Notes: generated from the letters alone by a model not told the origin. Shown: positions 2,353 to 16,326, counted from the first letter of the stretch. The stretch: 24,000 bases of DNA from Eubacteriales bacterium (GCA_045636385.1 JAZTXK010000030.1:37578-61577); one strand, 5' to 3'. Program-made: numbers and translations.

Positions 2353-3117
2353 TTATTTGTAAATTCTTCTTCCGATCTCGTCAAGATAAGCGATAAGCTC
2401 GTGCGGGTCGTTGGCGGTGATGTTGGTGAACCCGAATTTCATACAACGCTCTGCCGCCTCGCGGGAGTCTGCGTGGTAGCCCCAAGCCTGAATGCCGCGC
2501 TCGTCGAGCATTTTTACAAGCGCCACGATCTCCTCATCCGACATACTCATCGGCACGCCCATACCGTACATACGGTCGAGCACGCGGGGATCGTAGTGCT
2601 TCATCTTGACGGGCGGCTGTCCTTGCGTTTTAACGTGAGGATAGTGATCCTGAACGTAGAGAAGAGTCTGTGCATCAAAGCTTGCAATTACCGAACGCTC
2701 AAGCAGACCGTATTTTTCGAGCAGCGCGATCGCTACGTCAACAACGTGCGGACGCTGTTCCTTGATCTCAACGTTGAGCACCATATGCGCGGGGGCTTCG
2801 TCACGGATGCACTCAAGAGCCTCCTCAAAGGTGGGCACGCGCTCGCCGGGGAAACCGAATTTAACACCCGCATCGAGAGCCTTTACCTCTTCGAGCGTCT
2901 TGAACCAGACAGACCCCGTGCCGTCGGTGGTGCGGTCGACCATACTGTCGTGCATAACGATCATAACGTCGTCGCGTGTGAGCTGAATATCAAATTCAAG
3001 CACGTCAACGCCGAGCTTGAACGCCTCGCGGAAGGATATAAGAGTGTTTTCGGGCATATATTTCTGACATCCTCTGTGACCCGTAACACCGAGCTTTTCT
3101 TTGTTCTGATCCCACAT
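2353..3117 (-). CDS. Glycerophosphodiester phosphodiesterase (GDPD family)
   Basis: GHRG...PENTLISFREA...GVDVLEFDIQLTRDDVMIVMHDSMVDRTTDGTG. ATG at 3117 is preceded by AGGAGGA. The ORF-track start at 3243 was rejected. Confidence 0.85.
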   Translation of the reverse strand: MWDQNKEKLGVTGHRGCQKYMPENTLISFREAFKLGVDVLEFDIQLTRDDVMIVMHDSMVDRTTDGTGSVWFKTLEEVKALDAGVKFGFPGERVPTFEEALECIRDEAPAHMVLNVEIKEQRPHVVDVAIALLEKYGLLERSVIASFDAQTLLYVQDHYPHVKTQGQPPVKMKHYDPRVLDRMYGMGVPMSMSDEEIVALVKMLDERGIQAWGYHADSREAAERCMKFGFTNITANDPHELIAYLDEIGRRIYK

Positions 3118-3150
3118 AATACTGTCCTCCTGTGGCGATTGTTTGGAATA

Positions 3151-3179
3151 ATTATAGCATAAAACGGTGGGATTGTAAA
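3151..3179 (-). promoter_or_regulatory. Promoter of the GDPD gene
   Basis: Minus strand reads TTTACA, 17 nt, TATAAT, with TTTTATGC immediately upstream of the -10 (TRTG -16 motif). Confidence 0.6.
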
Positions 3180-3202
3180 GTGAGCTCCGCGAAATTCCCG
3201 TA

Positions 3203-3231
3203 TAGACAAACTCAAAAATATATGATATAAT
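3203..3231 (+). promoter_or_regulatory. Candidate promoter of the sigma-factor gene, back-to-back with the GDPD promoter
   Basis: TAGACA (3203-3208), 17 nt, TGaTATAAT (extended -10, TATAAT 3226-3231). Confidence 0.5.
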
Positions 3232-3340
3232 ATTTTTGCACAAAAATAAAAAAATTCCTCTCTCAATCCAACCCGCGGACGTTTACTTGACACTAACAGA
3301 TGAACGTTCAAAAAGGAATAAACCGAAAGGAGAACGCGAA

Positions 3341-6300
3341 TTGAATTATAAGACTCAAAATGACGAAACCCTCGTGATGCTGACGCTTGCGGGCGACGGG
3401 GAAGCATTCGAAGCACTTGTGCTCCGACATCAGAATGCCGTCATCGGTGCGGCGGCTTCGGTTACGCACAATCGCTTTATGGCAGAGGATGCCTCGCAGG
3501 ATGCATTCGTCACCGCGTGGATGAAGCTCGATAGCCTCTCCGAACCCTCAAAATTTCTCGCCTGGGTATGCAAGATCGCAATGTTCAGCGCGAAGAACAC
3601 CGTCCGCCGTTACCGCCCGTTCGCACCGATCGAGGATATTGAAAAGTACGCGGACGTCACCGACTACTCGCAGGATCCCGCCGAACTCTACGCGATCTCC
3701 GAGGAAAAGGAGGAGCTTCACCGCACCGTCCTCTCGCTCCCCGAGCGGGTTCGGCGCGTGATCACGCTCCACTACTTCGAGGAGCTTTCGGTTACCGAGA
3801 TAGCCGAAAAAATGCAAATTTCGGTCGGCACCGTCAAATCACAGCTCTTTGAGGGCAGACGAAAATTGAGAAAGGAACTTTGTGCAATGAATGAAAAGGC
3901 AAACGACACTCTCGTAGAGAGAGTAATGAAAAAGGTCGAGGAGCTGGAGCTCTGGCAGATCAAAAACGATAAAAGCGGCTTCGGGTCGGTCTATTCCGAG
4001 GTGCTCGCCGAAGTTGAAAACCTTCCCGAATGCAAGGATAAGTACCACGCCCTCGCCGACGTCCTCGCGCGCGGCTGGTGGTGGCTCCCCGGCAAGAAAA
4101 ACGAGGAACTCTTCGCCCGCATCAAGGAAGCGGCACTGATCGGTAAAAATGATGAGATAATGCGGTTTATCATACTGCGTGAGGCATCGGGGAAGAGCAC
4201 GGACAAGCGCGCGGACTTTATCCGTGGCGAGCAGATCCCCGAGCTTGAGAAGGCGGGCTTCGTCGGTGCGCTTGCATTTGCCCACTTCCGCCTCGGATAC
4301 AGAGATATGATGGATAAGAAATATGAGGAAAGCCGTGAGTCCTTCGGAAAGGCGCTCTCGCTCGTCGGTACGGACGACATGGTGCATGCTCTCGCATCAA
4401 ACGCGCTCATATTCCTTGATAGAATGGCAGAAGGATTCGGAGATGCGGACAAACATGATTACCGCATCGACGTCAACGCAAACAAACTGAAGATCATAGA
4501 CGGTGAGCCAAGATTCTGGAATAACGACGTCTTTGACGCGGGTTGGATGAATTCGGGCGCAAATATGGACAGTAAGCTTTTCGAAGCTGCGGGCGCTTGC
4601 GACGGTTATTTCTTCTCCGATCTTGCCGTCGCCGAGAGCTACACGGCAAGCGACGGCTCGACTCTCACCTATATTTCTGACAAAGAGCACGTCGAAGTTC
4701 CCGCAGGAGTTTTTGAGGACTGCCAAGTCTGGGAGTCGAAGGTCTATAAAAGCTGGGAGGGCACAACCTATTTCAGAGTTTATTACAAGGAAGGCGTCGG
4801 AATCGTCAAATACGAGAACAGACTCGACGGTATCATCGATACGGCTTACCTTACCTCTTATGAAATAAAAGGCGGCTCGGGTATTCTTCCTCTCGCTGTC
4901 GGCAACAAGTGGGAATATTCACTTGACGCAAAGCCCGAACATCTCAAAACGCTTGACCGATACGTGGTCACTCACTTTGATGGAGAAAGCGCCATTATCT
5001 CGGGTTACAACGAAGCCGAACGCTTGGGTTACGACGAGTCATCATGGCTTGAGATGATCGAATACGTAAGGAACAACTATTTCAAGCAGGACGAAAAGGG
5101 TAACTATCACGTTTGCGACGTTTATAGGCAGATCGATCTCACCGAAAAACTCGCAGTCACGCCGATGGAAAAGCTTCACAGCCGTGTCGCCGCATCTGTC
5201 GCCAGGCGTATTCTTGACACCAATGATACTCTGCACCCCGATACGAAAGTCATGGGGCATTGGAATTTCTTCAAAAAGTCGGCTCTGCACGAATCAAACG
5301 GCGAATATACGCTGACTTATGACAGCCGCTTCTCGTTTGAGCTCAAGCGCGGAAGCGCCGGGAATGCAGTTGACGGTCTGCTCTTCAACCATATGTACGG
5401 TATTTTGCAGGATGCGACCAAATGCCTTTGGTCGGATACTTGGGTCATCGGTGCAACTCCCGTTGTAGAATATGACTCATACGGTGAAAAGCACATCAAG
5501 ACGACGATATCCGTCGAGGATGGCGGAATCATCACTACAAAGGCGGGTACGTTTGATAATTGTATCAAGCTCTCGCTCAAAATCGACGGTATGAGGGACG
5601 GATGGTCGTACCGTGGAGGAAACAAGGAATACTACTTTGCCGAGGGAATCGGCATCGTCCGCACTGTCAACGAATACGCAAGCGGAACGAAAAACGCGGT
5701 TTATGAGCTTTCGTTCTACGAGGGTGTCGGCAAAGGATATATGCCCTTTGAGGACGGAATGGTGCGCTTCTATGAGGCGGTCAACCTCACGGACGGATAC
5801 TACGGCGCTGTGGAATACACTTATATGCGTAACGAGGATGGCGGCATCAACGTCTTTGAGGATATGACGGGTATCCGCAATATCCCCGCTCCTGTGACGG
5901 AATACGAATTCGTCGAGCGCGAGGTAATCGAGGAACAGATCTGGGATGAAAAGAAACTACCCGAGGCGCGTCTGCGTAATGCCGCAAACAATCTTCAGCT
6001 TATGCTTCACTTCCTTTCGCGCAACAGCCGCTCATGGAAATACGCGCCGAGGGGCAGAGCGTGGGCAAAATACCGCATCAAGATGATAGAAAATATGCTC
6101 CTGACCGATGAGGGCGAGATCGCTCCTGCGTGGCTCGGTGTTTATGCCGATATGCACTTTATGGCGGCTTGCACTACATTCGGATGCAAAAAGCCCGAGC
6201 TTAAGGACGAGGCTTACGCTTATCTCGAGCGTGCGTTCGAGCTTGCGCCTCGGTGGTTTAAGATCGCGGACGGTACGCTTCTCGATGTAGGCGACAGCGA

Positions 6301-6532
6301 AATTTACGGAGGCATCAAGCTCAAAAAGGGAGAGGAGAGTGTACTTATCTTACCCGACGGCACACGCGAAGCCTACGACAGCGAGTGGTTTGTCAATCTG
6401 ATGAATCCCGCACGCTTCTATAACGCTATGATCGCTCCGAAGGGTTGGGAATGGTTCAACTCGGCTCGCGATGATGAGAGATATAAGGAGTACGTCGAGC
6501 GGGCGAGAGAGCTGATGGAGAAGTATAGCTGA
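3341..6532 (+). CDS. ECF-type sigma-70 family sigma factor fused to a large (~870 aa) soluble C-terminal region of unknown function
   Basis: Region 2 (EDASQDAFVTAWMKL...FLAWVCKIAMFSAKN) and region 4 HTH (LPERVRRVITLHYFEELSVTEIAEKMQISVGTVKSQLFEGRRKL) lie in the first ~190 aa. TTG 3341 is 8 nt after AAAGGAG. The ORF then continues to 6532 with no TM-length hydrophobic stretch. Confidence 0.8.
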   Translation: MNYKTQNDETLVMLTLAGDGEAFEALVLRHQNAVIGAAASVTHNRFMAEDASQDAFVTAWMKLDSLSEPSKFLAWVCKIAMFSAKNTVRRYRPFAPIEDIEKYADVTDYSQDPAELYAISEEKEELHRTVLSLPERVRRVITLHYFEELSVTEIAEKMQISVGTVKSQLFEGRRKLRKELCAMNEKANDTLVERVMKKVEELELWQIKNDKSGFGSVYSEVLAEVENLPECKDKYHALADVLARGWWWLPGKKNEELFARIKEAALIGKNDEIMRFIILREASGKSTDKRADFIRGEQIPELEKAGFVGALAFAHFRLGYRDMMDKKYEESRESFGKALSLVGTDDMVHALASNALIFLDRMAEGFGDADKHDYRIDVNANKLKIIDGEPRFWNNDVFDAGWMNSGANMDSKLFEAAGACDGYFFSDLAVAESYTASDGSTLTYISDKEHVEVPAGVFEDCQVWESKVYKSWEGTTYFRVYYKEGVGIVKYENRLDGIIDTAYLTSYEIKGGSGILPLAVGNKWEYSLDAKPEHLKTLDRYVVTHFDGESAIISGYNEAERLGYDESSWLEMIEYVRNNYFKQDEKGNYHVCDVYRQIDLTEKLAVTPMEKLHSRVAASVARRILDTNDTLHPDTKVMGHWNFFKKSALHESNGEYTLTYDSRFSFELKRGSAGNAVDGLLFNHMYGILQDATKCLWSDTWVIGATPVVEYDSYGEKHIKTTISVEDGGIITTKAGTFDNCIKLSLKIDGMRDGWSYRGGNKEYYFAEGIGIVRTVNEYASGTKNAVYELSFYEGVGKGYMPFEDGMVRFYEAVNLTDGYYGAVEYTYMRNEDGGINVFEDMTGIRNIPAPVTEYEFVEREVIEEQIWDEKKLPEARLRNAANNLQLMLHFLSRNSRSWKYAPRGRAWAKYRIKMIENMLLTDEGEIAPAWLGVYADMHFMAACTTFGCKKPELKDEAYAYLERAFELAPRWFKIADGTLLDVGDSEIYGGIKLKKGEESVLILPDGTREAYDSEWFVNLMNPARFYNAMIAPKGWEWFNSARDDERYKEYVERARELMEKYS

Positions 6533-6553: not shown

Positions 6554-6583
6554 AAAGAATCCGAGCCGTGGCTCGGATTCTTT
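6554..6583. terminator. Bidirectional terminator between convergent genes
   Basis: AAAGAATCCGAGC (6554-6566), CGTG loop, GCTCGGATTCTTT (6571-6583). Confidence 0.8.
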
Positions 6584-6587
6584 ATAA

Positions 6588-7379
6588 TTATAACTTATCG
6601 TGCTTGATCCCCGAATTAATGAACCCAACCTGCTTGAAGTCCTTCGGGTTATGGCGGATTATGTAGTCGATATAGGAATCGACGAGCTCGGCGGTGAAGA
6701 GGTATCCGTCGGGGGTCATGTGGCCGTGGAGGAAGAAACGCTCGTGGAATTCCTTGCCGTAAAGCGGGCCGTATTTGTAGAGGTCGATGACGTATGAGTT
6801 ATCGAAAAGCTCCGCCATTTTGTAAAGCAGATCGATCATTGCGTGGGTTATCTCCTCGCGGTCGGCTCTGTCGGAGCGCGGGAAGGTTACGAAGAAGAAT
6901 TTTGCCTCGGGGCTGATCTCCTTGTAGCGGCTGACGATCGCGCCGTAATATCCGGCGAAGGTTTCCTTGTTATTGCGCCAATCCGAGAGGTCGATGTCCT
7001 CGATCGAGCCGAGCTCCCACTTCTTGTTGTAGAGATCGTTGACTCCCAGAGCGATAACGTACGCCTGACAAGCCTTATCCTTGTCCCAGAAGCCGCGGGA
7101 CTCGGCAAAGGACTCAATATACACCTTTGCGGTCATGCCGCCCTTGGAGAAATTATAAGCCTTGAGGCCGTTCTTGCGCGCGATAAACTGACCCCAGGAG
7201 TAGTCGTAGAGGTCGTGATAATGCGCCTTGCCCGCCTCGTCGCGCGTTTCAAACTCGCCCGAGGAAAGGCTGTCGCCGATGAAACCGATAGTTCTGAATA
7301 TGCTTGTTCTGCTGTAACCCTCGACGAGTCTGTCAAGCGGCTGTTCGTTTTCGGGGTAGAGATAATTGTTCCAGTCCAT
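6588..7379 (-). CDS. SGNH/GDSL-family hydrolase (esterase/lipase-like)
   Basis: Block I GDSLSSG, block III GVND and a C-terminal HGHMTPDGY block. SD AAGGAGAA. Last gene of the operon. Confidence 0.8.
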   Translation of the reverse strand: MDWNNYLYPENEQPLDRLVEGYSRTSIFRTIGFIGDSLSSGEFETRDEAGKAHYHDLYDYSWGQFIARKNGLKAYNFSKGGMTAKVYIESFAESRGFWDKDKACQAYVIALGVNDLYNKKWELGSIEDIDLSDWRNNKETFAGYYGAIVSRYKEISPEAKFFFVTFPRSDRADREEITHAMIDLLYKMAELFDNSYVIDLYKYGPLYGKEFHERFFLHGHMTPDGYLFTAELVDSYIDYIIRHNPKDFKQVGFINSGIKHDKL

Positions 7380-8769: not shown

Positions 8770-9636
8770 TTAAAGTTCAATGTCAACGTAAGCGGGCGAG
8801 TGGTCAGAAATCGGATAGTAATAATCGGGCGAATAGCGTTCGAAACGCTTGACCGAGCCCTCTTCCTCGCCGATGACGAGAATGTGGTCAATGGCGGTCT
8901 TGAAAGGGCGGTCGGAGTAAAAGGTCTTGAATCCGTCGGGGAAGCAATAGTGATAGCCGACAGCCTCCTCGGCGTAGTCGGTAGCGATATCGTGCGCGTG
9001 GCGGAAGCCCTTGGCAAACGCCGACTGCACGGCTTTCGAATCGTAACCCGTGTTGAGGTCGCCGACGAGGAAAGCGGGGCAGTTGTATTTCGCACGGAAA
9101 CGCTCGAGCGCGGTCGTCAGCATTTCGATCTGATACTCGCGCGCCTCGTCCGAGTAGGGAAGATAGTTCGGAGGGAGCGGCACGGGCGTTTTTTCGGTCG
9201 GTTGATGCTTCCACCAAAGGTGAGTGGTGGCGAAAATGAAGAGCTTGCCGTCTTCCTTCACGCGGAAAACGCCGATATTGTAAGCCTTCGAGCGCACGTC
9301 GTTGAACTTGCCCTCAAAGCCCTCAATGTGATCGGGATAGGTGCAGAATTCCGAATCAACGAGCTCGAGCTTGTCGGCACGGTAGAAAATGGGCGTGAAG
9401 CGACCCCAGATGAGCGTGTAATTAACGGGTTCGTGCGCCATTCCTTCTTTGAGAATATCAGCCATCAGCGCGGACGCCTCCTGACAGCCGATGACGTCGG
9501 GCATTGTTTCGCGCCAGACGCGGAGCAGCGAGGGCGCGCGCACCTCGGCGGAGCAGTCAAAGCCTTTTTCCTCCCAAGCGGGCGAATTTTTATCTCTGTT
9601 CCAGATGTTGTGGGTCATAAGTCGGATGGTTGACAT
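8770..9636 (-). CDS. Endonuclease/exonuclease/phosphatase (EEP) family protein
   Basis: IRLMTHNIW, QEA, GDLN, DHI and SDHSP blocks. ATG 9636 is preceded by GGAGG. The ORF-track extension to 9849 runs through a promoter and terminators and was rejected. Confidence 0.8.
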   Translation of the reverse strand: MSTIRLMTHNIWNRDKNSPAWEEKGFDCSAEVRAPSLLRVWRETMPDVIGCQEASALMADILKEGMAHEPVNYTLIWGRFTPIFYRADKLELVDSEFCTYPDHIEGFEGKFNDVRSKAYNIGVFRVKEDGKLFIFATTHLWWKHQPTEKTPVPLPPNYLPYSDEAREYQIEMLTTALERFRAKYNCPAFLVGDLNTGYDSKAVQSAFAKGFRHAHDIATDYAEEAVGYHYCFPDGFKTFYSDRPFKTAIDHILVIGEEEGSVKRFERYSPDYYYPISDHSPAYVDIEL

Positions 9637-9664
9637 GGTTGAACCTCCAATGTTTGTTGAGATA

Positions 9665-9693
9665 ATTATAGCATAAAATGGAGAGGATTGCAA
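9665..9693 (-). promoter_or_regulatory. Promoter of the EEP/AP/HP/SGNH operon
   Basis: Minus strand reads TTGCAA (9688-9693), 17 nt, TATAAT (9665-9670), with TTTTATGC upstream of the -10. Confidence 0.6.
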
Positions 9694-9696
9694 GGA

Positions 9697-9732
9697 AATA
9701 TAAAAATAAAGACCGCCAAAAACGACGGTCTT
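9697..9732 (-). terminator. Rho-independent terminator (second of a tandem pair)
   Basis: Minus strand reads AAGACCGTCGTTTTTGGCGGTCTT followed by TATTTTTATATTT. Confidence 0.55.
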
Positions 9733-9736
9733 ATAG

Positions 9737-9766
9737 ATAAAAAACAAAAGCCCCGTTCGGGGCTTT
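9737..9766 (-). terminator. Rho-independent terminator (first of a tandem pair)
   Basis: Minus strand reads AAAGCCCC-GAAC-GGGGCTTT followed by TGTTTTTT. The tail on the plus strand is poor, so it is assigned to the minus strand. Confidence 0.7.
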
Positions 9767-9881
9767 CGGTAAGAACAAAGGATGGGCGGTGTATCCATCA
9801 TCTCAGGTACTTCGGGAAGAAGTGCGTCGGGAACCATTTCCGACCTCAATGTTGCTTACGGAATAAGTATAATCTCATTCC
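9737..9881 (-). ncRNA. Candidate ~140-nt small RNA or leader of unknown class
   Basis: It lies between a perfect consensus promoter (9888-9916) and an intrinsic terminator. The longest ORF with an RBS-less ATG is 10 codons. Predicted hairpins are at 9826-9844, 9809-9823 and 9781-9799. I recognised no Rfam family. Confidence 0.35.
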
Positions 9882-9932: not shown

Positions 9933-10301
9933 TTATTTGAATTTAATTAATCTTCCGCTGTGAATTCTGCGTTCTAATTTTGAGCTTTGTACTGTATACA
10001 TAGTTGAAACGTATAAAATATCCGCAGAATGATCTACCTTAATGCCGATTAAAACGTTATCGTCATATTGCTTTATCAATTCGATGGACGAATCTTTTTC
10101 ATTTGGGTTGATTCCGATATAATCCGGATTGTTTATAATATCGGAAATGCGGTCTAAATATTGTAAGCAATCCTGATGGTTTCTTTTGATAAGATGTGTT
10201 TGCAGTCCAACAGAGCGAAAAATATGGGTTTGAGTAATATCGATATTCAATAGATTATTAAATTCTTTATTATATTCACCAACGTGAATGAGCTTTTTCA
10301 T
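9933..10301 (-). CDS. Small hypothetical protein resembling phage/plasmid PBECR-type (Barnase-EndoU-ColicinE5/D-RelE-like) putative nucleases
   Basis: 122 aa in a visibly AT-rich segment. The pattern THLIKRNHQD...YLDRISDIINNPDYIG...IELIK...VLIGIKV...LYVSTMYTV...RIHSGRLIKF matches my recollection of that family's layout. Gene call confidence is high and family call is moderate. Confidence 0.6.
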   Translation of the reverse strand: MKKLIHVGEYNKEFNNLLNIDITQTHIFRSVGLQTHLIKRNHQDCLQYLDRISDIINNPDYIGINPNEKDSSIELIKQYDDNVLIGIKVDHSADILYVSTMYTVQSSKLERRIHSGRLIKFK

Positions 10302-12912: not shown

Positions 12913-14472
12913 TTATTCAACTAAAAGCGTAACGCTCGATTTATCGCAGATCACGGTATTATGCGCGATCTTGGCGGTTGTCTGGAGCGCGTAAGGTCCG
13001 CGGTTGTTGGTGTGGCGGACGTATAGCGGAAAAGCTGAAGATGAGACGTCGATGCGGAGCTTTTCTCCCTTTTTGATGACGAAAGCGTGCTCGTCGAAGG
13101 AGAAATCCATCTCGATCTCGTCACCCGGCTTATAGTCGGGCGCGAAATTCGAGATCTGATTGATATCGTCGCGCAGACCGTAATATCCCTCCTCCTTGCA
13201 GAGACTGAGGCGGATATAGAAGCAGGTGTCCTCGCAATCCGAGCGGACGCGGAGTTTTGCCGTCATCTTGCCCTTGACATAGGTGTCTTCCTCAAACTCG
13301 GGCGTGAAGAAGGAGAGAACGTCGTGTTGGATATTCGGCTTATGCTGCCACGCGTTGCCGCCGAAATTTGCCGAAAGTCCGCCCTTGAATTTCGCGGGGG
13401 CGTAGGGGTTATAGGTATAAGTCTTCTCCCCCTCGCCAAGCGCAAAGGTGATCGACTTTTCGGGCGCGGCGAAATCGTCGGTGCACCATTCGTTGCCGAA
13501 GAGCTTGTAATACGTGACCTTTCCGGGCTCGAAGGGAGCCGCCTCTTTGCCTCTGACCGAGTTGATCCAGCGGATATAAAAATCATTCAAGACGTCTTCG
13601 CCCGAGGGAGCGTCATCGAAGACGATCGGCTGATCGCCCTTTTTGTTGTTGCCGTGGTCATAGGGATGAACGAACAGAGCGCATTTAGCCTTCGTTTCGG
13701 GCGCGATGGCGTTCCACAGATCGAACATACCGCCCGTGTAGATGTCGTAAAATCCCGTGACGACGAGGATCGGAATATTCGCGTTCGTCATCGCACCGCG
13801 CGAATCGCATCCGCCCGCGCGGGTGTTCCAGAAATCATCGTTTCGGTCGGGATGGAGAAGAATGTCGTCAAAGCTCGGCACGCTCTCGCCGAAAACGGTC
13901 TTTGAAAAGTCGATCAGCGGGAGCATATTGTAGCTTTCGGGCTTATAAGCCTTCTCGCGGATGCTCTTGCGCTTATACATACCCACGTACCAGCCGCCGT
14001 GGAGACCTATTTTATAGAATCCGTTGCGGTAATTGCAGTTGTAGCGCTCGGTGTCCTGAACGGCAAGCACCGCGCCCTTGATGTCGTCCGCAAAGGGTGC
14101 CGTAACCTGATGGACGGTTGATTTGTAGCTGTTGCCGACGAGGTAGAGCTCGCCGTTATAGAAGGTCTGCTGACGAACCCAATTCTGTAGGAAAAGTCCG
14201 TCCTCGCGCTCGTTAATGTAGGGAATGCAATCGCCCGAGCTCTTACCCCTGCCGCGGCAATGCTGATAAACGACGGCATAGCCCTGCTCGGTCCATTTCT
14301 CCACACTCGCGGCAAAGGCATCGACGATCTCGTCCTCGGCTGAATTTTCAACCGCGTCAACGTAAGGATCGCGCCTGATAACGGTCGGAAACTTTCCCGA
14401 TTCCTCGGGAAGGCAGATTACGGTGAAAAGATCTGCTCCGTTAAATTCAAGGTATTCGTAGTAGTTTTTCAT
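12913..14472 (-). CDS. CocE/NonD-family hydrolase (X-Pro dipeptidyl-peptidase S15-like alpha/beta hydrolase)
   Basis: RRDPY, HCRGRGKSSG and GNSYKS (nucleophile elbow), plus a long beta-rich C-terminal domain typical of the family. Confidence 0.8.
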   Translation of the reverse strand: MKNYYEYLEFNGADLFTVICLPEESGKFPTVIRRDPYVDAVENSAEDEIVDAFAASVEKWTEQGYAVVYQHCRGRGKSSGDCIPYINEREDGLFLQNWVRQQTFYNGELYLVGNSYKSTVHQVTAPFADDIKGAVLAVQDTERYNCNYRNGFYKIGLHGGWYVGMYKRKSIREKAYKPESYNMLPLIDFSKTVFGESVPSFDDILLHPDRNDDFWNTRAGGCDSRGAMTNANIPILVVTGFYDIYTGGMFDLWNAIAPETKAKCALFVHPYDHGNNKKGDQPIVFDDAPSGEDVLNDFYIRWINSVRGKEAAPFEPGKVTYYKLFGNEWCTDDFAAPEKSITFALGEGEKTYTYNPYAPAKFKGGLSANFGGNAWQHKPNIQHDVLSFFTPEFEEDTYVKGKMTAKLRVRSDCEDTCFYIRLSLCKEEGYYGLRDDINQISNFAPDYKPGDEIEMDFSFDEHAFVIKKGEKLRIDVSSSAFPLYVRHTNNRGPYALQTTAKIAHNTVICDKSSVTLLVE

Positions 14473-14500
14473 AATTATACCGCCTTTTTGTTATGGGTTT

Positions 14501-14529
14501 ATTATAGCATAAATTGAGCATTTTTGCAA
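14501..14529 (-). promoter_or_regulatory. Promoter of the CocE/NonD-GH20 operon
   Basis: Minus strand reads TTGCAA (14524-14529), 17 nt, TATAAT (14501-14506), preceded by TTTATGC. Confidence 0.6.
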
Positions 14530-14586
14530 CTGTGTGGGAAAATAATATTTGAGCGTTTATTTTAATATGTGGCATTATGAATATGG

Positions 14587-14618
14587 AAAAACAGCCACTC
14601 GCGCGAGTGGCTGTTTTG
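14587..14618. terminator. Terminator of the small-protein operon (bidirectional hairpin)
   Basis: AAAACAGCCACTCG pairs with CGAGTGGCTGTTTT (13-14 bp stem). On the minus strand it is followed by TTTTTCC. Confidence 0.75.
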
Positions 14619-14677
14619 GAGTAAAAACTATTGAAATGCAAAGGGACCAATGCAAAACTAGATTCTTTGCAGAAGAA

Positions 14678-14887
14678 TTAATATCCGTTATATTGCGCTA
14701 TTGCAAGTAGTATGCCAATAACTAAAATAGCAATACCTCCAAGTAGCGCCAAAGGAGAGATTATGCTCCATTTAGCAATTTCTTTTTGCTGTTGAGGAGT
14801 AATGATTTTTTCGATTGTATGTCCGCATTTTGGACACATAACCGCTTCGTCGAGTAATTGATTTCCACATTTTTCACAATATTTCAT
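14678..14887 (-). CDS. Zinc-ribbon protein with one C-terminal TM helix
   Basis: MKYCEKCGNQLLDEAVMCPKCG (CxxC...CxxC), then ISPLALLGGIAILVIGILLAIA. SD GAGGAG. Confidence 0.7.
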   Translation of the reverse strand: MKYCEKCGNQLLDEAVMCPKCGHTIEKIITPQQQKEIAKWSIISPLALLGGIAILVIGILLAIAQYNGY

Positions 14888-14899
14888 TTATGATGCTCC

Positions 14900-15187
14900 T
14901 CACATAAAATATATCATCAATATCAAGAACAAATTAACAACAAAGCCTATTAGTGAAAACAAGCCTATTTGATTTGCTTTTCGAGGAGTTTGAGCTTGCA
15001 TTGTGCAATACAAAATCAAACCAACTATCGGTATAAAAAAGCCAAGTAAATTTAAGCCGACATTGGGCATATCAGCGGATGAATTGGCGGCTCCGATGTT
15101 GCCAACCCCATTCGCTGCGCAACCGCAGTTGGTGCACACAATGGCATCATCCACCAATTCTTTTCCGCAATGAGTGCAATACTTCAT
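14900..15187 (-). CDS. Zinc-ribbon protein with two TM helices (paralogue of 14678-14887 at the N-terminus)
   Basis: MKYCTHCGKELVDDAIVCTNCG, then LLGFFIPIVGLILYC and LFSLIGFVVNLFLILMIYF. SD GGAGGA. Confidence 0.75.
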   Translation of the reverse strand: MKYCTHCGKELVDDAIVCTNCGCAANGVGNIGAANSSADMPNVGLNLLGFFIPIVGLILYCTMQAQTPRKANQIGLFSLIGFVVNLFLILMIYFM

Positions 15188-15208
15188 AAATAGTCCTCCG
15201 CATATAAA

Positions 15209-15541
15209 TCAGTCTATTTCAACATCTACCGATGCTCTTTCAGTTTCCGGATTATATTTCCCTGTTCCTTCAAAGGTTCCTGAAACAGTTTGGTTGTATA
15301 CATCCAAAGCAGAATATGTGCCATAGAAGACAAACTCATTTTCACTAATTTCTTGAATAGTAGTAATTTGAGCCCTCGGTGCCTTGCATCCATAATTGGT
15401 TAAAGTAAAAGTAACATCCCATTCTGCTCGGTCAATAACCGCATCTTTAGGTGTCATTACTTTTGAGGGCTCTTCGCTATCGCACGCACAAGTTGAAATT
15501 AATAGAATTGCTATAAGCAAAAATATTATGCCTTTTTTCAT
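15209..15541 (-). CDS. Small putative lipoprotein, unknown function
   Basis: Signal peptide MKKGIIFLLIAILLISTCAC and a ~90-aa beta-rich mature part. SD AAAGGAGAT. Confidence 0.7.
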   Translation of the reverse strand: MKKGIIFLLIAILLISTCACDSEEPSKVMTPKDAVIDRAEWDVTFTLTNYGCKAPRAQITTIQEISENEFVFYGTYSALDVYNQTVSGTFEGTGKYNPETERASVDVEID

Positions 15542-15585
15542 AATATCTCCTTTTTAATTCAATAATTAATGGCTGTGAAGGTTAA

Positions 15586-15927
15586 TTATTTGAAATCGTC
15601 AAATTCTTCTTTTGAGAAAGTGAATTTATCTGCTTCTTCATTATATGTTGCAACCAAACCAAATTTTGCTGACATAATTTCCTTGTCGATTTTGATCGTA
15701 TATGTTCCTAAAACTGCCCATTGATTAGTTTTTGTTTCTACAACGGAAGCAATGTCTACATTTACAGGCTCGCTAACAAATCCGCCAATTCTGATACGGT
15801 AATTTGTACTTATGTATTCTGTTACTTCATCAGGAAGTCTTTCTTTCGGGGTTCGTTTTTCACCGCCACAAGCGCAAAGCGTGAAGAGCAAAACTACGGT
15901 ACAAAGTAGAGCAATAATTCTTTTCAT
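15586..15927 (-). CDS. Small putative lipoprotein, unknown function (remote paralogue of 15209-15541)
   Basis: Signal peptide MKRIIALLCTVVLLFTLCAC. It shares the ..GTY.. and ..YN.E.. pattern with the neighbouring lipoprotein. ATG 15927 was chosen over the TTG at 15957, and the SD is weak or distant. Confidence 0.65.
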   Translation of the reverse strand: MKRIIALLCTVVLLFTLCACGGEKRTPKERLPDEVTEYISTNYRIRIGGFVSEPVNVDIASVVETKTNQWAVLGTYTIKIDKEIMSAKFGLVATYNEEADKFTFSKEEFDDFK

Positions 15928-15970
15928 AGTAATTAGTATTCCTTTCAAATATACCAAATTGGGATATTTA

Positions 15971-15993
15971 TATTATACCAAAATGGTATAATA
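15971..15993. promoter_or_regulatory. 23-bp perfect palindrome (candidate XRE operator) containing both divergent -10 boxes
   Basis: TATTATACCA-AAA-TGGTATAATA. The plus-strand TGgTATAAT (15984-15992) has a weak -35 and would serve the XRE gene. Confidence 0.55.
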
Positions 15994-16000
15994 ATGTCAA
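15972..16000 (-). promoter_or_regulatory. Perfect consensus promoter of the lipoprotein/zinc-ribbon operon
   Basis: Minus strand reads TTGACA (15995-16000), 17 nt, TGgTATAAT (TATAAT 15972-15977). Confidence 0.65.
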
Positions 16001-16027
16001 GGTCTTTTGTAAAAAAAGGAGAGAAAA

Positions 16028-16237
16028 ATGGAATTTCGGCTCAAAGAATTGCGGAAAAAGCGGAATATATCGCAATTAAAGCTTGCAATCGATCTGAATA
16101 TGAATCAGAATACGATCTCGCGGTATGAAAATTTGGAGCGCGAGGCGGATTATGAAACTCTTATTCGCTTTGCGGATTATTTTGGTGTTTCGCTTGATTA
16201 TTTGCTGGGGCGAAGTAATAGCGAGGAAATAAAATAA
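16028..16237 (+). CDS. XRE-family (Cro/CI-type) helix-turn-helix transcriptional regulator
   Basis: LRKKRNISQLKLAIDLNMNQNTISRYENLEREADYETLIRFADYFGVSLDYLLGRS. SD AGGAGAG. Confidence 0.85.
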   Translation: MEFRLKELRKKRNISQLKLAIDLNMNQNTISRYENLEREADYETLIRFADYFGVSLDYLLGRSNSEEIK

Positions 16238-16279
16238 AGGAACTTTTTATGAGTAAGTCATAGAAAGTTCCTTTTATGT
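16236..16279. terminator. Terminator after the XRE gene
   Basis: AAAGGAACTTT-T-TATGA GTAAG TCATA-G-AAAGTTCCTTT forms a ~17-bp stem and is followed by TATGTATT. Confidence 0.65.
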
Positions 16280-16295
16280 ATTATGGGCAATCAAT

Positions 16296-16326
16296 TCAAT
16301 CTCGCGGAATTTTTCCGGGAGATTGA
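16296..16326. other. Strong hairpin downstream of the dehydrogenase gene (possible atypical terminator)
   Basis: TCAATCTC-G-CGGAA TTT TTCCG-G-GAGATTGA. There is no U-tract on either strand. Confidence 0.3.

Follow-up and report, generated by a model that had tools for sequence, protein, structure and literature searches.

The question raised by this locus is how an extracytoplasmic function (ECF) sigma factor is controlled when its reading frame runs on into a very large soluble region and no anti-sigma gene lies beside it. The gene (3341-6532, + strand) is found in a 24-kb stretch of Eubacteriales DNA (GCA_045636385.1 JAZTXK010000030.1:37578-61577), the whole of which is called the window here; all coordinates are those of the window, and all residue numbers those of the 1063-aa product. 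A preliminary description of the window had recognized the fusion, and suggested a ligand- or glycan-sensing one-component sigma factor. The analysis reported here adds an ECF-type promoter, a sigmaA-type promoter, a palindrome at the start site, and the size of the family with its long and short forms. Our preferred answer, to which we give an even chance of being right, is that the protein is a one-component ECF sigma factor of the cytoplasm whose activity is gated by the fused extension. The extension would replace an anti-sigma factor, with an intracellular ligand or partner sensed by beta-rich domains, positive feedback, and perhaps an operator-mediated brake.

The sigma module and its fused extension

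An uninterrupted open reading frame (ORF) occupies 3236-6532 (+), and the coding sequence of the fusion protein was called within it from the ORF reading, Pfam matches and homologues. TTG 3341 is the likely start codon; in 78 of 82 homologous loci the alignment likewise places a start codon here, and a predicted ribosome-binding site, AAAGGAG (3326-3332, +, read directly from the sequence), lies 8 nt ahead of the TTG, with GAAAGGAG kept at this site in homologous 5' untranslated regions (UTRs).

The assignment of the N-terminus to group 4, with regions 2 and 4, was borne out by Pfam (Sigma70_r2 at residues 26-91, 39.8 bits; Sigma70_r4_2 at 124-176, 62.8 bits) and by the NCBIfam model TIGR02937 (sigma70-ECF, 99.5 bits with a cut-off of 42.9). 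No Pfam match to region 3 was found in the protein, which has the ECF arrangement of sigma2 and sigma4 alone with a linker between them, and none of the NCBIfam equivalog models came near its cut-off (for example SigW, 96.6 versus 209). The sigma2 domain was delimited at residues 8-94 (3362-3622, +) from the Pfam match and the AlphaFold2 helices, and the sigma4 domain, with its predicted -35-binding helix-turn-helix, at residues 113-180 (3677-3880, +) from the Pfam match. By sequence, AlgU (E 2e-24) is the nearest sigma factor of solved structure, followed by SigW (5e-20) and E. coli sigmaE (1e-19). Residues D50, Q53, D54, A55, F56 and W60 of sigma2, and G163, T164, K166, G172, R173 and R177 of sigma4, are invariant in the family. 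Together these matches show the N-terminal 180 residues to be a complete sigma2-sigma4 ECF module.

Behind this module the frame continues unbroken for ~870 residues, as had been noted, and full-length homologues share this arrangement. AlphaFold2 was run on the full-length protein (119-sequence alignment, mean predicted local distance difference test (pLDDT) 87.5, predicted template-modelling score (pTM) 0.73) and on residues 367-855 (pLDDT 92.9, pTM 0.90), giving the confident multi-domain model that the preliminary description had proposed to obtain. Disorder in the full-length model is confined to residues 104-126, within the sigma2-sigma4 linker, and to the extension link at 180-188 (pLDDT < 50). 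The first part of the extension was modelled as a flexible link (181-188), junction helices (191-250) and TPR-like helical repeats up to residue 366 (3881-4438, +), with nine helices between residues 191 and 366. The link, KELCAMNEK (~181-188), is near-invariant across the family although it is predicted to be disordered, and the junction at 191-250 holds the tryptophans of a GWWWLPG motif that are invariant or nearly so; conservation of residues 181-250, measured as identity to the consensus in 81 superfamily representatives, was 0.57, compared with 0.61 and 0.55 for the two sigma domains.

The central part consists of a beta-rich, DUF3108-like domain 1 (residues 367-566; 4439-5038, +), delimited from the AlphaFold2 sub-model and its homology to the second such domain, a helical insert (residues 567-630; 5039-5230, +; modelled helices at 569-579, 595-604 and 608-626), and a beta-rich, DUF3108-like domain 2 (residues 631-852; 5231-5896, +), delimited from Pfam PF21347. 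Duplicated beta modules in the middle of the protein had been proposed earlier, and profile comparison of residues 367-566 with residues 630-852 upheld this (hhalign probability 97.3%, E 1.9e-11). Both domains carry the motif AGxFxxC...Y(Y/F)xxG(V/I)GIVR...LxxYxGxGxG(L/M)P, and the AGxFxxC of domain 1, with C461, is kept across the superfamily. The model ends in a C-terminal helical block (residues 853-975, with five helices between 856 and 973) and a small alpha/beta domain (residues 976-1063, modelled between 980 and 1062) with an invariant GWEWF, limited to the long subfamily (both at 5897-6529, +). The stretches that had been quoted as TPR-like near both ends do fall within the helical blocks at 191-366 and 856-973, and the term describes these blocks fairly, but their assignment to TPR is not carried by Pfam, where matches stayed below the cut-offs (TPR_2 at 312-341, 21.5 bits versus 27; TPR_8, E 0.68).

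The only named domain in the extension is DUF3108_like (PF21347), to which Pfam assigns no function; it scored 36.7 bits over two stretches (gathering cut-off 27), was matched by all 35 family members checked (best E 8e-12), and the match covers the C-terminal quarter of the model only (positions ~140-184 of 199). The literature on DUF3108 yielded nothing informative. No relative of the extension was found in the PDB by single-sequence or profile search, and a Foldseek search with the full-length model gave good matches for no part but the sigma module. Foldseek's best matches to residues 367-855 were StfQ and BexL, di-domain proteins of the ARO/CYC type that reached E 1.5e-5 and probability 0.97 but had a template-modelling (TM) score of only 0.13-0.20 and a root-mean-square deviation (rmsd) of ~20 Å. 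ARO/CYC proteins (SRPBCC helix-grip fold), TbpB, porins and herpes gB were all considered as relatives and, given their low TM-scores, not taken as homologues.

The extension appears to be soluble throughout. The highest 19-residue Kyte-Doolittle mean is 1.31 in this protein and at most 1.55 in 120 homologues, so no transmembrane helix is indicated, and the membrane segment that would have overturned the earlier proposal was not seen. The ten cysteines (77, 181, 231, 420, 461, 592, 695, 741, 944 and 949), among which C420/C461 and C695/C741 are conserved pairs, include no CxxC pair, and the zinc-finger (HxxxCxxC) anti-sigma motif is therefore absent; no Pfam anti-sigma domain matched the protein. 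When sigma2 and sigma4 of the full-length model were superposed on solved structures, the fit was better to anti-sigma-bound ECF factors (TM-score 0.44-0.50, rmsd ~13.5 Å) than to RNA polymerase (RNAP)-bound ones (0.31-0.40, ~25 Å), which is a weak hint that the model depicts a closed state.

The family is large. A protein database search gave 625 hits, and the best 120 are 1041-1087 aa long, cover 99-100% of the query at 49-95% identity, and have the identical Pfam set; the only names given by the source are of the type 'sigma-70 family RNA polymerase sigma factor [Clostridia bacterium]'. When one genome was scanned for each GTDB species, 360 stretches proved to encode a relative; counted by species, full-length homologues of 47-95% identity occur in at least 360 genomes. 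The best 80 stretches are without exception full-length, and each comes from uncultured Clostridia of the gut, rumen or faeces, Oscillospiraceae, Acutalibacteraceae, Flemingiibacterium and Faecousia among them. Paralogues, for which a search had been suggested, exist, since two of the best 80 stretches come from one metagenome-assembled genome. A phmmer search with residues 190-1063 against 1.84 billion representatives gave 420 hits, in which every full-length match starts at residue ~185-210 behind a sigma domain. Six candidate stand-alone extension genes of ~660-690 aa were seen, and the three examined were two truncations at contig edges and one broken sigma gene (locus L084). These comparisons show an extension always fused to a predicted sigma domain and conserved over its whole length. 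Two forms were distinguished: a long form of ~1045-1130 aa, which includes the protein of the window, and a short form of ~830-890 aa (P0141-P0208), which stops after beta domain 2 (about residue 850) and has no counterpart of the final ~210 residues. Of the clusters formed at 50% identity, more belong to the short form than to the long one. Occupancy of the C-terminal part (853-1063) was 0.27-0.29 across the 81 representatives.

Promoters and the start-site palindrome

Two promoters were predicted ahead of the gene. The upstream one, P1 (3203-3231, +), was found by consensus scan and is of the sigmaA type (TAGACA-N17-TATAAT), matching the consensus at 11 of 12 positions with a TG extension ahead of the -10; similar TGnTAnAAT elements occur upstream in related loci. 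A second near-consensus sigmaA-type promoter, TTTACA-N17-TATAAT with TG, lies at 3151-3179 on the - strand and points the opposite way, toward a GDPD gene, so that the intergenic region 3100-3340 carries back-to-back promoters.

The downstream promoter, P2 (3268-3296, +), was recognized as a conserved motif, with its -35 CCAACC at 3268-3273 and its -10 region GACACTAA at 3289-3296. A motif of this kind was one of the earlier suggestions for follow-up, and when the upstream regions of 83 orthologous loci (proteins 47-81% identical) were aligned, an ECF-type motif, CCAACC-N17-GTCTA, was present in 81 of them ~80 nt ahead of the start codon. Written out, the motif is (C)CCAACCTTTT, also given as CCAACC(TTTT)-N-, followed by TGTGTCTA(W), with GTCT 17 nt after CAACC; a spacing of 17 nt was counted in 75 loci and one of 16 nt in 8, and GTCT, in the -10, has an invariant C. 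The window has CACTA in place of GTCTA at the -10, and P2 is the sole such site found by pattern scans of the 24 kb. Its general form, AAC in the -35 and (C)GTC in the -10, is that of ECF promoters, and published promoters of similar form include those of ECF21 (GCAACC...CGTCT) and ECF128 (CCAACC...GGCGTC).

The simplest reading of this arrangement, on the strength of the conserved motif, is that the sigma factor reads P2 itself in positive autoregulation, in which case its sigma domain would work as a sigma factor. The order of the two promoters, P1 (sigmaA-type) ahead of P2 (ECF-type), suggests a basal plus a feedback promoter. In the clade of the window, GACACT replaces GTGTCT at the -10, and a sigma2 helix reads IA(M/I)F(S/C) in place of IA(K/R)NC; this joint change was seen in 9 of 9 loci of the clade versus 0 of ~65 others, as a single lineage event. 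It would fit self-recognition and is only suggestive of it.

Directly after the -10 of P2, over the predicted transcription start, lies a perfect 10-bp palindrome, TGAACGTTCA (3301-3310, +). Among 74 distinct own-promoters, 78% had a perfect palindrome of at least 8 nt at this position, compared with 2.6% of shuffles, and its centre lies ~15 nt downstream of the G of GTCT. The position is common to loci L001-L082 and to many of L086-L205. Sixteen sequence variants were found, including AAGCGCTT, GAGCGCTC, TAGCGCTA, CAGCGCTG, GATGCATC, GAGTACTC and GAAGATCTTC, in which symmetry is kept as the sequence changes between lineages, and two other sigma-fusion families have a like element (TGAAAGCTTTCA, TGAACGTTCA, TGAATATTCA). 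An RNA hairpin is unlikely here because the palindrome lacks a loop and is too short; RNAalifold called no conserved pairs in the 5' UTR, where Rfam matched nothing either. The obvious guess is that a dimeric factor uses the palindrome as its operator. Most orthologues have another short palindrome or mini-hairpin, variable in sequence, in the 5' UTR ~15-30 nt past the first (for example L063 TGGGAACTCCCA, L030 CGAAAATTTTCG and L038 CGGAAATTTCCG); it is absent from the clade of the window, and RNAalifold did not call it.

Further sites were sought by a position weight matrix (PWM) scan of ~1 Mb of related loci, by pattern scans of the window, and by a metagenome scan with CAACCTTTT-N10-TGTGTCTA. 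The PWM scan gave five strong extra sites, one before a membrane-protein gene in locus L011 and four before a gene for a different, ~555-aa sigma fusion; among the matches listed for the metagenome scan, ~30 were own-promoter sites and the rest mostly unrelated soil or marine sequences. The L011 site (L011:1174-1605; score 30.1) is the strongest non-self match and stands before a gene, ~2 kb upstream of that for the sigma fusion, whose 120-aa product is predicted to be a membrane protein. This gene is the sole candidate regulon member seen, and a start-site palindrome is lacking there.

Tandem arrays beside the ~1050-aa gene (L068:1-5394, L059:85-8853, L021:4255-10999, L042:2296-5832 and L070:139-1821) revealed three more ECF families, of ~540-570 aa, in which the sigma factor likewise has a soluble extension, so that fusion of a sigma factor to a long soluble region is a design that recurs in these bacteria. 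The extensions of these families begin with a weak winged-helix (MarR-like) match, in each family an ECF-type promoter of its own comes after one of the sigmaA type, and one of them shares the CCAACCTTTT...GTGTCTAT promoter with the ~1050-aa family.

Proposed control by the extension and competing explanations

The flanks hold no candidate for a separate anti-sigma factor, as had been stated at the outset, either in the window or in the 81 loci compared; a co-transcribed anti-sigma factor, typical of ECF sigma factors without being universal, is thus not found here. A divergent GDPD gene (2353-3243, -) lies upstream and a convergent GDSL-lipase gene (6588-7379, -) downstream, behind a predicted bidirectional intrinsic terminator (6554-6583) common to both converging genes, with a GC-rich 13-bp stem (-21.6 kcal/mol, z -4.27) and A/T runs on both sides. 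With the divergent gene on one side and the terminator on the other, the sigma-fusion gene is monocistronic. No gene family is conserved beside it, the commonest neighbour being present in 7 of the 81 loci.

ECF groups without anti-sigma factors that are regulated by fused C-terminal extensions are known (groups 41, 42 and 238; PMC8999054, PMC7826278). The 2021 ECF classification describes 19 groups with C-terminal extensions, of the SnoaL-like (~100-150 aa), TPR (~200 aa), Cys-rich (~20-100 aa), DUF1835, and zinc-finger/transmembrane (up to ~400 aa) types, and no group with DUF3108-type domains or a soluble extension above 400 aa is described there. The earlier statement that the extension is several-fold larger than those of ECF41 and ECF42 thus stands, with ~400 aa as the maximum in that classification. 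In the portion of the supplementary ECF sequence tables that was available, the peptides QDAFVTAW, GWWWLPG and GWEWFNS were absent.

By published descriptions, no described group fits. ECF42 (Streptomyces venezuelae Sven_0747, Pseudomonas putida ECF-10) is similar in lacking an anti-sigma factor, in being soluble, in having a helical-repeat (TPR-type) region right after sigma4, and in an extension thought to control activity by conformational change; its extension, however, is ~200 aa of pure TPR with a YCII-domain gene at -1, whereas here ~870 aa include two DUF3108-like domains and further modules, the best TPR score (TPR_2) falls short of its cut-off, and a GDPD gene lies upstream, with no YCII or other conserved neighbour. 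The SnoaL-like groups (ECF41, ECF56, ECF294, ECF295 and ECF205; SigJ, Ecf41Bli) share the one-component logic in which a fused soluble domain replaces the anti-sigma factor, may bind small molecules, and contacts sigma2, sigma4 or the linker, but they have a single SnoaL_2 domain of ~100-150 aa; the extension here is 6-8 times larger and multi-domain, and no SnoaL match to the protein was found in Pfam at E up to 1. Factors of the RpoE/AlgU/SigW type include the closest solved sigma relatives and use promoters of similar form (AAC in the -35, GTC in the -10), but are ~190 aa long and controlled by the membrane anti-sigma factors MucA, RsiW and RseA. The ECF52/ECF53/ECF48/ECF57/IutY type likewise has a long C-terminal extension on the ECF core without a separate anti-sigma factor, but of up to ~400 aa, with a zinc finger, one or two transmembrane helices and a sensor outside the cell; the hydropathy maximum and the lack of a CxxC pair set the present protein apart from ECF48, ECF52, ECF53, ECF57 and ECF243. 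ECF262 resembles it in its Clostridiales/Ruminococcus range, in having C-terminal extensions, and in like ECF genes in adjacent loci, and differs, by description, in low-complexity variable extensions, often with a transmembrane helix and assorted small domains, and in the unrelated N-terminus of its example. The best reading of these comparisons, which were made by description, is that the protein represents a new extension type within a known kind of fused-regulator ECF sigma factor.

The mechanism that we prefer, in which the extension gates the sigma domain, would run as follows. P1 would supply a basal level of protein, and the active fusion protein would transcribe its own gene from P2, together with an unlinked regulon. 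The extension would stand in for the anti-sigma factor, with the junction helices holding or positioning sigma2 and sigma4, and the tandem DUF3108-like domains would bind an intracellular ligand or partner, whose binding would switch the sigma domain between an inactive and an RNAP-competent state. The start-site palindrome would probably add a second, negative control. The one-component, ligand-sensing proposal made earlier is retained here as a conjecture as far as ligand sensing is concerned; its glycan part finds no support, as the protein is cytoplasmic, the carbohydrate and phospholipid genes around it in the window are not kept in 80 other loci, and the beta domains match DUF3108_like only.

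Several observations weigh against this mechanism. No ligand, pocket or enzymatic motif was identified in the extension by Pfam, Foldseek or PDB profile searches, and the beta domains are without a close solved relative, as the low TM-scores and the empty profile searches attest. Contact between the extension and the sigma domain, which the mechanism takes for granted, was demonstrated by none of the analyses. No correlation holds within the family between the T-run behind the -35 and the sigma4 residue that follows GTVK. The PWM, window and metagenome scans found no regulon member save the one small membrane-protein gene in L011. An identical -35/-10 also stands ahead of the different, ~555-aa family, so that another sigma factor could drive P2, or the two could engage in cross-talk. 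The start-site palindrome implies a further regulator, which the mechanism leaves unspecified.

The same lack of a ligand-binding signature (Foldseek, PDB profile search) would be expected if control were partner-dependent, as in ECF42, with the extension as a protein-interaction scaffold needed for activity and the signal arriving through an unlinked partner instead of a small ligand. The TPR-like helical blocks at both ends of the extension are consistent with such a scaffold, and the TPR-rich extensions of ECF42, which activity requires, are believed to work by way of partner proteins. On the other hand, no partner gene is conserved in the 81 loci, whereas ECF42 has its YCII-domain neighbour, the TPR matches are sub-threshold, and more than half of the extension is made up of beta-rich domains of a type absent from ECF42; we regard this explanation as unlikely, while giving it some weight.

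The -35/-10 shared with another sigma-fusion family, the several ECF-fusion genes in tandem arrays, and a start-site palindrome that needs a binding factor would also suit an extension without a regulatory role, which might have an effector or tethering function of its own (for example, bringing RNAP together with some other machine, or binding the DNA of the palindrome) while P2 is read by another ECF sigma factor of the genome. This is decidedly unlikely in our estimation, given the obligatory fusion with its highly conserved junction, the joint change of the -10 and sigma2 in the clade of the window, and the lack of any catalytic or DNA-binding domain detected by Pfam in the extension.

A link that is predicted to be disordered and yet is nearly invariant could alternatively be a cleavage site, the extension being a fused soluble anti-sigma factor from which a cytoplasmic protease, cutting at ~181-188, would free an ECF sigma factor of ~21 kDa. 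Proteolytic activation has been proposed for the fused anti-sigma-like extensions of ECF243 (IutY), ECF48, ECF52 and ECF53 (PMC8999054), but these precedents span the membrane and use regulated intramembrane proteolysis, whereas no transmembrane segment is seen here; neither an HxxxCxxC motif nor a Pfam anti-sigma domain was found in the protein, and no protease gene is linked to it in the 81 loci. Proteolytic release is accordingly rated as improbable.

A sequencing frameshift that fused a sigma-factor gene to a separate gene for a large soluble protein, which the preliminary description had named as a possible refutation, is excluded for practical purposes because the single frame is shared by full-length homologues from at least 120 clusters and from 80 or more independent genomes; the extension is never a true separate gene, and nothing was found in favour of an artefact, though in the distant relative L084 a broken sigma gene precedes the extension.

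Extending the preferred mechanism of extension-gated control, a wider proposal would be an undescribed regulatory design in gut Clostridia, common to at least four ECF families with long soluble extensions, of which the ~1050-aa family is the largest. In it, a sigmaA promoter for basal expression would be combined with an ECF promoter for autoregulation and with a start-site palindrome bound either by the fusion protein itself, as a signal-free dimer, or by a dedicated co-evolving regulator. We consider this proposal doubtful; if true, metabolite-gated activation and autorepression would be united in one giant sigma factor, and the tandem DUF3108-like domains would be a new class of cytoplasmic sensor.

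Surroundings of the gene and meaning of the family

The gene stands among GH16, GDPD, GDSL-lipase, phosphodiesterase and GH20 genes in the window; these glycan and phospholipid genes give no clue to its function, since the neighbours are not conserved. Elsewhere in the window, a skipping-rope RNA motif was found at 9773-9854 (-; Rfam 61.1 bits, gathering score 36.7), just downstream of a PBECR3 nuclease-domain gene (9933-10301, -) and overlapping the annotated start of an Exo_endo_phos ORF (8770-9849, -), for which a true start further downstream is probable. The region 14400-16300 holds small genes of low GC content (0.36-0.43) and may be an inserted island; among its genes are two for membrane proteins with a zinc ribbon (14678-14887 and 14900-15187, -), two ORFs of lipoprotein-like character (15209-15541 and 15586-15957, -) and one for an XRE-type helix-turn-helix protein (16028-16237, +).

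ECF sigma factors make up one major bacterial signalling system, and their fused-extension variants are the least understood branch of it. To this branch the family adds a very large, wholly cytoplasmic, multi-domain extension together with a clearly defined promoter of its own. The palindrome, whose sequence varies while its symmetry is kept, and which is common to other sigma-fusion families, poses a separate mechanistic question. The family could yield a self-contained, anti-sigma-free sensor-sigma module for synthetic biology, and could show how abundant uncultured gut anaerobes control transcription.

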